From positions 32,001-96,000 of IMG/VR virus record IMGVR_UViG_3300032050_000024: a stretch of DNA of 64,000 nucleotides; one strand, written 5' to 3'. Position 1 is the first letter of the stretch; every line of letters starts with the position of its first letter. The position numbers were made by a program, and so were the translations under genes. Shown one piece after another: positions 11,642 through 12,809 of the stretch. The notes beneath the pieces are model-generated. The model made no database searches, was not told where the DNA came from, and worked only from the letters and a program-made list of their open reading frames with translations. The DNA is from a virus.

Positions 11642-11692
11642 TTACATGTTCGGATCACCTGGGGTATCAATACCGGATGCATCGTATTTTGT
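11642..11692 (-). repeat. 51-bp repeat encoding TKYDASGIDTPGDPNM* (copy A; copy B at 12098-12148)
   Basis: Direct alignment: 44/51 nt identical; all 7 differences are at third codon positions. Confidence 0.95.
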
Positions 11693-12082
11693 TTGATTTA
11701 ATTTAACTAAATTTACGTTAATTGTTTGTTTACCTAAGGCCCAATTGGCAACAAGTCTATGATGTCCATCATAAATTGCCATTTCTCCATCTACAAACTG
11801 AACTGCATTAATTGGCGTTGTTGCATTTATATTTGCAATAATTTGCTTTACTTTATTGCTTTGAATGTTTGGTTGAGTTATTCGAATGTCTGAAATATTA
11901 ACAGTTTCTGGGGTTGCTGTTTTTTGATTTGTTTCAAATGCTTGTATCACCTCGTTCCAGGTATGACGACTCATTTTAAATACATCTTTTATATTTTTTG
12001 CGTCATCAAATAATTTACCTGCAGGTAGTTTATCAATTCGAGTATGATTTGTTTCATTTAATAAATTACGTAATCGTATCAT
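11642..12082 (-). CDS. ParB/Srx-like domain protein with shared leader and C-terminal tag
   Basis: IRITQ...PINAV...IYDGHHRL motif; termini MIRLRNLLNE and TKYDASGIDTPGDPNM. Confidence 0.75.
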   Translation of the reverse strand: MIRLRNLLNETNHTRIDKLPAGKLFDDAKNIKDVFKMSRHTWNEVIQAFETNQKTATPETVNISDIRITQPNIQSNKVKQIIANINATTPINAVQFVDGEMAIYDGHHRLVANWALGKQTINVNLVKLNQTKYDASGIDTPGDPNM

Positions 12083-12086
12083 ATTA

Positions 12087-12094
12087 ATAAATAT
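12087..12094 (-). promoter_or_regulatory. Putative late-promoter motif ATATTTAT (one of about 15 intergenic copies)
   Basis: 4 nt upstream of the ATG at 12082; same motif precedes most structural operons. Confidence 0.55.
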
Positions 12095-12097
12095 TCT

Positions 12098-12589
12098 TTA
12101 CATGTTCGGATCACCGGGCGTGTCGATGCCCGATGCATCATATTTTGTATTAATTACTCTAATTAGTTTACTATTAACTAAACATTTTTTTATGTTAACA
12201 ACAAAAACTGAAAGATTATTTGGATCTTCAGAATATCCTTCTACGGTATTATGATAAATAAATTCATTGTAATTGCCGTATTTTATAAAATCCTCAGTTG
12301 TATGACCAGCACCTTCGTCTACATCCATCATGATTTTTGGATATGGATTTACTAATCTGATATTAATTTTATATTCATAAAAAACTGAGTAATGATTCCA
12401 TAACGAATCAATCCTAGTATCTACTTGCTCACTAGTACCTAAATGTATTGGTTGATTAGATGTTACAAAATCTATTTTATTTGAAGATCCATGATATGTA
12501 GTTAACATCAAGCCAGGTTTAATTCCTTGACTGTGAATAGTGTCCGGCCAAAATGAATTTTCCATTAATAAATTTTTTAATCGTATCAT
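12098..12589 (-). CDS. Putative ADP-ribosyltransferase-like (ART-PolyVal-type) protein with shared leader and C-terminal tag
   Basis: YHGS...IHLGT..Q...R, NP, IYHNTVEG...SVFVV pattern; termini MIRLKNLLME and TKYDASGIDTPGDPNM. Confidence 0.55.
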   Translation of the reverse strand: MIRLKNLLMENSFWPDTIHSQGIKPGLMLTTYHGSSNKIDFVTSNQPIHLGTSEQVDTRIDSLWNHYSVFYEYKINIRLVNPYPKIMMDVDEGAGHTTEDFIKYGNYNEFIYHNTVEGYSEDPNNLSVFVVNIKKCLVNSKLIRVINTKYDASGIDTPGDPNM

Positions 12590-12590
12590 A

Positions 12591-12809
12591 TTAATATATA
12601 TCTTTTAGGGTAGTATTACCTTTTATATGATGCGGTTCATAAGGACAATGTCGGCATCTATTTCCACAACATGTACCTCGTTTAATGTGATATGATTCTG
12701 TAAAAACACGATATCCATTTTCATAATAAAAGTCAGTTGGAAGGAGCTTGTTTCCAAACTCCCTCACAAATGCTTGTTGTATCCAATCTTTTGACGCAGA
12801 CACTATCAT
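12591..12809 (-). CDS. Small Cys-rich protein (DUF5522-like)
   Basis: VFTESYHIKRGTCCGNRCRHCPY. Confidence 0.75.
   Translation of the reverse strand: MIVSASKDWIQQAFVREFGNKLLPTDFYYENGYRVFTESYHIKRGTCCGNRCRHCPYEPHHIKGNTTLKDIY

Follow-up and report, generated by a model that had tools for sequence, protein, structure and literature searches.

A shared leader and C-terminal tag on two unlike enzymes: candidate cargo cassettes in an island of an uncultured T4-like phage

Introduction

Why should two neighboring phage genes whose products differ throughout their cores begin with nearly the same ten amino acids and end with an identical sixteen? The question is raised by genes A and B of IMG/VR virus record IMGVR_UViG_3300032050_000024 (130,639 bp, 32% G+C, estimated 78% complete), which lie in a stretch of 64,000 nucleotides (nt) corresponding to bases 32001-96000 of that record, hereafter the window, to which coordinates refer unless another source is named. 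Gene A (11642-12082, minus strand) encodes a candidate ParB/Srx-like protein of 146 amino acids (aa) and lies 15 nt downstream of gene B (12098-12589, same minus strand), which encodes a protein of 163 aa with an ADP-ribosyltransferase (ART) fold by structure model. An earlier note on this DNA had proposed that the two form a swappable cassette system, in which a leader and a tag address exchangeable enzymes.

How a phage chooses proteins, loads them into its head, and delivers them with its DNA is known in detail only for T4's capsid targeting sequence (CTS), which is N-terminal. The T4 CTS is the 10-residue MKTYQEFIAE, which is enough for encapsidation (PMC9026906; bioRxiv 10.1101/2021.01.19.427310). 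The gp21 prohead protease of T4 cuts after L/I-x-E (PMC9026906), and the internal proteins of T-even phages are diverse, with the CTS alone conserved (PMC3012670).

The explanation favored here, to which we give a probability of roughly 0.55 as a whole, is that an uncultured T4-like phage has a hypervariable island of cargo genes, with A and B as two of its cassettes. A would be a small ParB/Srx-like nucleoside triphosphatase or nuclease and B a small ART-fold enzyme using nicotinamide adenine dinucleotide (NAD), and each cargo gene would be transcribed from a late-type promoter abutting its ATG. The leader, M-I-[RK]-L-[KR]-x-L-L-x-E, would bring the protein into the assembling prohead core, as the CTS does in T4, and the S77 prohead protease would cut it off after Glu10; the enzymes would then travel inside the head and pass into the host together with the DNA. 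The tag would be a second, protein-level signal, disordered, left on by the S77 protease, and carried only by leader proteins of this lineage, acting in retention, positioning, or exit order as a short linear motif that docks on some conserved part of the head or ejection pathway. Because both gene ends are conserved, whole cargo genes could be exchanged, lost, or fused.

Two unlike cores with common ends

A and B have in common the 10-residue leader MIRL[RK]NLL[NM]E, the 16-residue C-terminal tag TKYDASGIDTPGDPNM, and nothing more. The leader, a putative capsid targeting sequence, reads MIRLKNLLME in B (codons 1-10, 12560-12589, minus strand; predicted cut after Glu10) and MIRLRNLLNE in A (codons 1-10, 12053-12082, minus strand). 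The ART-like core of B spans residues 11-147 (12149-12559, minus strand) and the ParB/Srx-like core of A, with its DGHHR motif, residues 11-130 (11693-12052, minus strand); the tags follow at 12101-12148 in B (stop codon 12098-12100) and 11645-11692 in A (stop codon 11642-11644), both on the minus strand. A BLASTP comparison of the two proteins aligned the C-terminal 29 residues alone (19 identical, E 4e-11; next segment E 3.7), so that the open reading frames (ORFs) and BLASTP together bear out the claim of one leader and one identical tag on two unlike cores. At the DNA level, likeness starts sharply at the tag and is absent 5′ of it; across the tag and stop codon 7 of 51 nt differ, all at third codon positions and all synonymous, just as the earlier note had observed. 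The near identity of the 5′ ends starts about 14 nt ahead of the ATG and lasts through codon 4, and the sequence also confirms the late-type motif noted before A and its degenerate form before B.

The core of B matched nothing in Pfam or PHROG, and the ART families of Pfam were matched by none of the 20 members of its own family; in an hhalign comparison of B with the ART-PolyVal-like protein of viral contig L034, the tag alone aligned. The family is small (7 proteins in 90% clusters; 16 representatives in an exhaustive search), and a first model built on a 7-sequence alignment, with a predicted local distance difference test score (pLDDT) of 39, was discarded. The AlphaFold model refolded with 20 sequences reached a pLDDT of 86 and a predicted template modeling score of 0.80, with low confidence at the leader and tag only. 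Foldseek found no PDB entry at E≤1e-3 (best, MbcT at E 3.8e-3), and its top rows are nearly all members of the ART superfamily: MbcT, NatT, tankyrases and PARPs, ParT, and pertussis S1. Exhaustive comparison with the PDB returned 25 chains at Z≥5, almost all of ART fold, led by NatT (Z 7.6 over 128 aa, root-mean-square deviation 4.0) and ParT (Z 7.5 over 118 aa), with MbcT at 7.0, diphtheria toxin at 6.1, and PARPs at 5-6; Z values below 8 are middling, and the weight rests on the uniformity of the ART list. A search of BFVD gave ART-PolyVal proteins at E 0.008-0.1 only. Across the 20 sequences H49-x-G51, Q55, Y112-x-N114-x-x-E117-G118, and N125-x-S127 are invariant, and H33 is nearly so (R in 2); the catalytic H/R ... 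S/Y ... E signature of ARTs may lie among these residues. By its model, B is an ART-fold enzyme belonging to no described ART family, predicted to use NAD, by ADP-ribose transfer or by splitting of NAD+ only, and the earlier label of ADP-ribosyltransferase-like thus holds at the level of fold, on the strength of the AlphaFold model and the PDB comparisons.

The grounds for calling A ParB/Srx-like, its sequence and a lower-confidence model, are weaker than those for the fold of B. A matches Pfam ParBc_2 (PF08857) at E 0.044 and 14.4 bits, below the cut-off of 23.6, and that family is matched at E≤0.01 by 3 of 33 members of the A family; ParB-like families of PHROG are matched at E 4.5e-4 and weaker, and phrog_2859 at 4.9e-8. 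A profile search of PDB sequences gave no match (best E 0.17), and tblastn against cultured phages gave a single weak one, to a ParB-like nuclease of Stenotrophomonas phage DLP_3 (E 5e-4). Residues D105, G106, H107, and R109 (DGHxR) are invariant across the 33 family sequences, and an Atlas model of A (pLDDT 0.62) aligns to clusters in which 74% of members carry ParBc_2 (template modeling score, TM, 0.68) or 100% carry ParB_N (TM 0.57). With B modeled in the ART superfamily and A weakly ParB-like by sequence and Atlas model, the cores do not appear to be diverged copies of one fold.

The C-terminal tag

When K-[YF]-D-x-[ST]-G-I-D-T-P was searched for as a degenerate DNA pattern, 41 viral and 72 metagenome loci were recovered, which together with the window give 128 copies, and 125 of these end exactly 5 residues before a stop codon; another two come from a single unrelated protein that matches internally by chance, and one runs off its contig. 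Setting aside 23 tagged frames cut by a contig start leaves 102 true complete frames, among which an in-frame leader is present in 98 (with a GTG start in 7) and 4 are broken, three having the leader in another upstream frame and one being a 39-aa fragment. The tag therefore occurs on leader proteins only, because every intact tagged frame has a leader.

The 79 distinct tagged proteins fall into 25 clusters, and about 14 unrelated cores are left once fragments, the chance match, and two fusion types are removed and clusters sharing an N-terminal domain are merged. Two cores lie above the Pfam cut-off, a GNAT (PF13508, 31 bits) and DUF6934 (32.6 bits); two lie below it, an ART-PolyVal-like core (28.8 bits against a cut-off of 31.2) and a Tox-ART-HYD1-like group (E 5e-4). 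Further cores are the ParB-like family, B itself, an acidic 109-aa protein, and several without a match. The proposal that the tag is attached to other types of domain has thus held up across the viral and metagenome collections.

The tag consensus is [TP]-K-[YF]-D-x-[ST]-G-I-D-T-P-[GN]-[DN]-P-x-M. Codon positions 1, 2, and 3 have entropies of 0.30, 0.20, and 0.90 bits, respectively, in a set of 34 distinct tag DNAs, and in 31 tagged orthologues of A compared with the window copy the tag is 84% identical and the core 64%. Two residues outside the search pattern are conserved as well: of 101 frames, 99 have P at position -2 and all 101 end in M. Since variation is concentrated at third positions and the window copies differ only synonymously, the tag is, on this pattern of substitution, selected as a peptide and not as DNA. 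Looser forms of the motif end leader proteins at L045 and L173 (...RFDWTGIKDK, ...AYDASGVSDAMN, and ...QYDWTGIKDKP), which suggests an older, looser [YF]-D-x-[ST]-G core.

Two ideas about the tag were rejected. T4 Alt is reported to be processed at both termini, with a C-terminal piece removed by gp21 (PMC9026906), but the tag contains no Glu, and none occurs in the approach to it in A or B; the S77 protease should therefore not remove it, and a cleavable C-terminal propeptide like that of Alt was dropped. Nor do tag variants co-vary with the genome, as YDAS and YDWS/FDWT tags occur within the same contig.

What a retained peptide of this kind would do can be suggested by analogy. We tentatively suppose that it docks with a conserved component, either of the head or of the ejection pathway. 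A more specific version, in which the tag is the phage counterpart of the encapsulin cargo-loading peptide, fixing cargo to the inner face of the capsid, the portal, or a core remnant and thereby setting exit order, is doubtful. A complex prediction pairing residues 105-146 of A with the major capsid protein, for which an alignment of 41 rows was used, returned a score of 0.00, which is no answer and evidence neither way.

The same features of the tag (short, disordered, C-terminal, selected as a peptide, and present on unrelated enzymes) would also suit action after injection, with diverse enzymes docked on a single hub of the host (RNA polymerase, the ribosome, or the nucleoid, for example), as clamp- and SSB-binding tails do, SSB being the protein that binds single-stranded DNA. 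The cargo types are host-modifying enzymes, and the leader is carried without the tag too, both of which fit such a role; yet the tag never occurs without the leader (98 of 98 intact tagged frames) and is absent from orthologues of the same enzymes in other phage lineages, and we regard a host hub as unlikely. A phosphorylation site, used for example by a co-packaged kinase-like leader protein, or a degron limiting enzyme lifetime is improbable. Y, S/T, and T-P are invariant in the tag, and a kinase-like leader protein, so labeled by eye from its GxGxxxxVYE...K N-terminus, occurs in this genome and all four related genomes (180-185 aa; 101483-102025 of this genome, at L213 and outside the window, with relatives at L053, L058, and L060). 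Against this, that protein, which carries no tag, has no Pfam match, so that even its activity is a guess. We know of no C-terminal degron that the tag resembles, which counts against the degron version.

The N-terminal leader

The favored explanation, in which the leader loads its cargo into the head, has its firmest part here. The leaders of A and B are ten residues long and end in L-x-E, and the genome encodes a T4-type prohead protease of family Peptidase_S77 (51966-52595, minus strand; PF03420, E 4.8e-35, 117 bits, above cut-off). In this genome 5 ORFs begin with the leader by a strict search and 8 by a looser one, which includes one doubtful ORF of 73 aa; the carriers include a Phage_lysozyme2+LysM protein, an HExxH protein, and the kinase-like protein. 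The leader DNA pattern has 7, 7, 4, and 5 matches in four related genomes, none in a reversed-pattern control, and none in Flavobacterium phage immuto; 22 of these 23 matches head ORFs of at least 83 aa and one a 20-aa ORF. The L-L-x-E part of the leader is conserved despite varying codons.

Orthologues in other phages carry other leaders, some of them T4-like. Such other leaders stand on 3 of 6 close homologues of B, and leaders near the T4 CTS include MKYVKTYESFLSES and MIKTYIEFINES on relatives of B and MKTVKTYEEFLNE on a relative of A. Among the 120 homologues of A listed, 13 of the 52 untagged ones have an MK-type, T4-like leader.

A further line of evidence is an 865-aa polyprotein of another viral contig (L151:4198-6792), whose modules are joined by L/I-x-E. 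By eye, these are a nucleotidyltransferase-like module, an HExxH module, one starting with IGDAS, the A-type ParB-like domain (E 1e-48), and a second HExxH module, and at least two of them are stand-alone leader proteins in the genome of the window (E 3e-38 and 1e-48). The HExxH leader protein of this genome, MISLKNLIVE|GRYDSL, aligns to KEELTE|GRYDSL of the polyprotein (E 3e-38), and the next module start, ...PLNE|IGDAS, resembles ...LLKE|IGEA of DUF6934-like cargo, a likeness of 14 residues only (E 0.017). A module thus begins at the residue after the Glu of the leader, and no better sequence evidence for processing at Glu10 is available; a match between a stand-alone leader protein and a polyprotein module is rare sequence-level evidence for a prohead protease cut site. 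Given the S77 protease, the T4-like length and L-x-E end, and the T4-like leaders and polyprotein joints on orthologues, the leader is quite probably a CTS analogue, a head-loading signal cut off by the prohead protease. The T4-style leader of the earlier note, with packaging and cleavage at LxE, gains indirect support from the same features and from the unrelatedness of its carriers.

Several observations weigh against the favored explanation. Beyond its length and the x-E end, MIRLKxLLxE has no likeness to the T4 CTS MKTYQEFIAE, and the third codon position of the leader is not freer than the first (entropy 0.62 versus 0.64). Of the 27 distinct cassette 5′ ends listed, 25 have (A/G)ATATTTATTAAT or a one-base variant of it as the 13 nt preceding the ATG, whatever the upstream gene, and the first four leader codons, ATGATACGATTA, are nearly invariant as DNA among the same ends; because these 12 nt and the 13 nt upstream are so conserved, the leader may be kept in part for the start of transcription or translation and not for targeting. 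As to the tag, the search pattern itself required its K, D, G, I, D, T, and P, which makes their invariance partly a matter of ascertainment. Leader proteins outside the island have no tag, some leader genes inside it have none either, a MIRL-type leader stands on 36 of the 52 untagged homologues of A mentioned above, and sister lineages, such as that of L149, have MIRL leaders without the tag; as other leader proteins of the same genomes and some island leader genes lack it, the tag cannot be needed for packaging as such. Finally, packaging, cleavage, and ejection of A and B are inferred from sequence.

The DNA-level conservation at the 5′ end is also what would be expected if the leader were some other N-terminal element, either an amphipathic helix for binding a membrane or a partner or a sequence for translating leaderless late mRNAs. 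In its favor are promoter-like motifs just 4-7 nt from the ATG and DNA-level conservation of the first four codons, but the motif is missing from some leader genes, whose spacing is ordinary, polyprotein and stand-alone boundaries both fall at Glu, orthologues carry T4-like leaders, and an S77 protease is encoded in the genome, and we hold such an element to be very improbable.

A hypervariable cargo island

The setting of the two genes bears on the remaining part of the favored explanation, that whole cargo genes are exchanged. In 12 of 12 tagged orthologues of A in viral contigs the order of genes is DnaB, ribonucleotide reductase (RNR), DUF5522, cargo, FolE, and QueD, two of the loci being partly cut by contig ends, whereas 41 of 43 untagged orthologues have none of those anchors within 6 kb; by this synteny, the tag is confined to one lineage and one island. 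In the window, the upstream anchor is a 618-aa ORF (12809-14665, minus strand) labeled by eye as ribonucleotide reductase, and the downstream anchor a 221-aa ORF (10914-11579, minus strand) labeled by eye as FolE, GTP cyclohydrolase I. The DUF5522 gene (12591-12809, minus strand) encodes a Cys-rich protein of 72 aa (Pfam PF17653, E 6.8e-18).

The 55 RNR-to-FolE islands compared, some of whose contigs are present in both collections, show 26 architectures. DUF5522 is in all 55, with 1-4 leader genes on either side of it, most tagged and some not, and the order of the window (DUF5522, B, A) was found once. Two natural fusions occur, of the ParB-like protein with the 109-aa protein and of a 139-aa protein with the 109-aa protein, both with the junction ...TKYDAS|NINKIEE, which arises when the sequence from the tag's distal 10 codons through the stop codon and spacer to the end of the next leader is lost across a CATC microhomology. 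A single DNA contig joins 12083 to 12570, skipping B, and is weak, with 25 letters on its short side. Cassettes have evidently been gained, lost, and fused at their conserved ends, to judge by these sequences, and the number of architectures bears out the description of the cassettes as swappable. A candidate MuF fusion at L190 was dropped for want of Pfam support.

That the conserved ends are mainly DNA, a portable promoter and start with a 3′ homology block for recombination and peptides of no function of their own, is the least probable of the explanations considered, since the near invariance of ATATTTATTAAT-ATGATACGATTA whatever lies upstream, the 26 architectures, the two fusions with one junction inside the tag, and the weak contig that skips B would suit it, but the third-position variation of the tag (0.90 versus 0.30 and 0.20 bits), the synonymous differences between the window copies, and the conservation of L-L-x-E with varying codons do not. 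The related suggestion that the ends serve as recombination handles stands in part: it is plausible for the promoter and leader DNA and shown in one case for the tag, by two fusions with the same junction, but the variation at third positions speaks against DNA homology as what maintains the tag.

An ORF of 246-253 aa starting MIIYKTTNLVNGKIYIGK, GIY-YIG homing-endonuclease-like by eye, lies between RNR and DUF5522 in 8 of the 55 islands (L002, L010, L015, L077, L114, and others) and could drive local gene conversion.

Relation to known systems

Cargo marked by a leader is already known; as far as can be told, the C-terminal tag, the cassette with two conserved ends, and the island are undescribed, and a full-text search for the peptide strings among 8.4 million papers and preprints found neither the tag nor the leader. 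The nearest parallel is T4, in which IPI-III and Alt carry a 10-residue leader ending in L/I-x-E on unrelated, fast-changing proteins, and the genome described here likewise encodes an S77 protease and a Gp23-type capsid protein, with ART-type enzymes, like Alt, in its cargo. In T4, too, the set of internal proteins varies and the leader alone is conserved (PMC3012670, PMC9026906). The systems differ in the leader, MIRLKxLLxE against MKTYQEFIAE, and in the cargo, here mostly enzymes and known from sequence alone, in T4 small basic proteins; a conserved, Glu-free C-terminal peptide is not known to be described for T4.

The domain repertoire also recalls the polyvalent proteins of phages and conjugative elements, which are proposed to be injected with phage DNA and comprise ParB-like domains, ARTs, lysozyme, GNAT, and HExxH peptidase-like domains (Iyer et al. 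2017, PMC5512222). Delivery alongside DNA is proposed in both cases, and the A-type ParB-like domain occurs inside such proteins, namely the L151 polyprotein and a 1609-aa polyvalent protein (L181:5320-10146) that also has two ART-PolyVal stretches (106 bits), DUF5824, and DUF5661. A and B are each single-domain proteins, outside the definition of polyvalent proteins by two or more domains; in place of one long protein, each domain has a gene to itself, with a separate leader and, for island genes, a separate tag.

The cargo peptides of encapsulins are, like the tag, short C-terminal peptides on unrelated cargo of an HK97-fold shell (PMC10960027, PMC8346489), and the C-terminal region of a prohead protease, SPN3US gp245, has been proposed as a packaging signal (PMC7411985). 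In contrast to encapsulin peptides, to which it has no sequence likeness, the tag is added to an N-terminal signal, and its docking to a capsid is only proposed. The C-terminal prohead-targeting region of the HK97 protease is another parallel.

The island resembles the hyperplastic regions of T4-type phages, where PeSL cassettes are found, in being a variable stretch between conserved genes whose cassettes are bounded by a conserved promoter and leader; it differs in that the 3′ boundary is coding, a tag apparently selected as a peptide. Polymorphism of the internal protein (IP) locus in T4-type phages was reportedly described by Repoila et al. in 1994 (cited in PMC3012670).

This lineage seems to apply the CTS principle with another leader, together with a C-terminal peptide on at least a dozen unrelated enzymes, among them three kinds of ART, a GNAT, and a ParB-like protein, all exchangeable at one locus. 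Should the tag prove to be an address or a dock, it would represent a new short motif with a receptor in the virion or the host, and would also provide a list of candidate injected enzymes for host takeover or anti-defense and a second handle for engineering protein delivery by phages; if the dock is encapsulin-like, leader and tag together would amount to a plug-and-play system of two signals by which arbitrary enzymes are loaded and delivered.

Expression signals around the cargo genes

The late-promoter-like motif ATATTTAT lies 4 nt before the ATG of A (12087-12094, minus strand), and a degenerate form, ATATATAT, lies 4 nt before the ATG of B (12594-12601, minus strand), where it overlaps the last codons of DUF5522; those codons (KDIY*) also serve the following cargo gene as its promoter motif. 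The genome contains 61 copies of ATATTTAT against 46 in shuffles, and 38 of the 61 are at most 40 nt upstream of a same-strand ORF of at least 40 aa, including the portal gene (54213-56051, minus strand; phrog_213, E 2.6e-59) and several large ORFs. From this distribution a late promoter is inferred. The exact motif precedes six leader genes, at 4-7 nt from the ATG in four and at 18 and 23 nt in two, and structural genes have spacings of 9-35 nt. Leader genes with the motif at 4-7 nt have no Shine-Dalgarno sequence, and other leader genes have ordinary spacing and no promoter-like motif. Because only 4 nt separate motif and ATG, the cargo mRNAs may, as a speculation, be leaderless.

Between the stop codon of A and folE (11580-11641) is a sigma-70-like pair, CTTTGAAA ... 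TATTATATTA, whose sequence and position are kept downstream of tagged genes in many related loci. It is probably the early promoter of the folE-queD operon, in which case late cargo genes abut early metabolic genes. The ORFs at 9318-11579, by eye folE, queD-like, and queE-like, flank the island and point to 7-deazaguanine metabolism. RNA-library contigs from three runs cover parts of folE at 90-99% likeness and 36-nt promoter and leader stretches joined to unlike sequence on both sides, leaving the bodies of A and B uncovered; this coverage speaks for neither expression nor silence of the two genes.

The phage and its source

Besides the protease and portal protein, the genome encodes a Gp23-type major capsid protein (47807-49468, minus strand) and a large terminase. 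By capsid protein, the closest cultured phages are Microcystis phage Mel-JY01 and Flavobacterium phage immuto, at about 55% identity, with Rhodothermus phage RM378 a more distant relative, and the nearest isolates suggest Bacteroidota as candidate hosts; blastn of the region and tblastn of B against cultured phages found no homologue. At least half of the sampled words of the stretch are present in 12 public runs, labeled as fungus or freshwater metagenome, and contigs of one public run are identical to 11601-12844. The phage seems to belong to an abundant, uncultured freshwater lineage of T4-like phages. Its capsid protein family is very common in public data, with all 8000 of 8000 scored candidates at E≤1e-30 and the best 120 of those 8000 at 77-94% identity.

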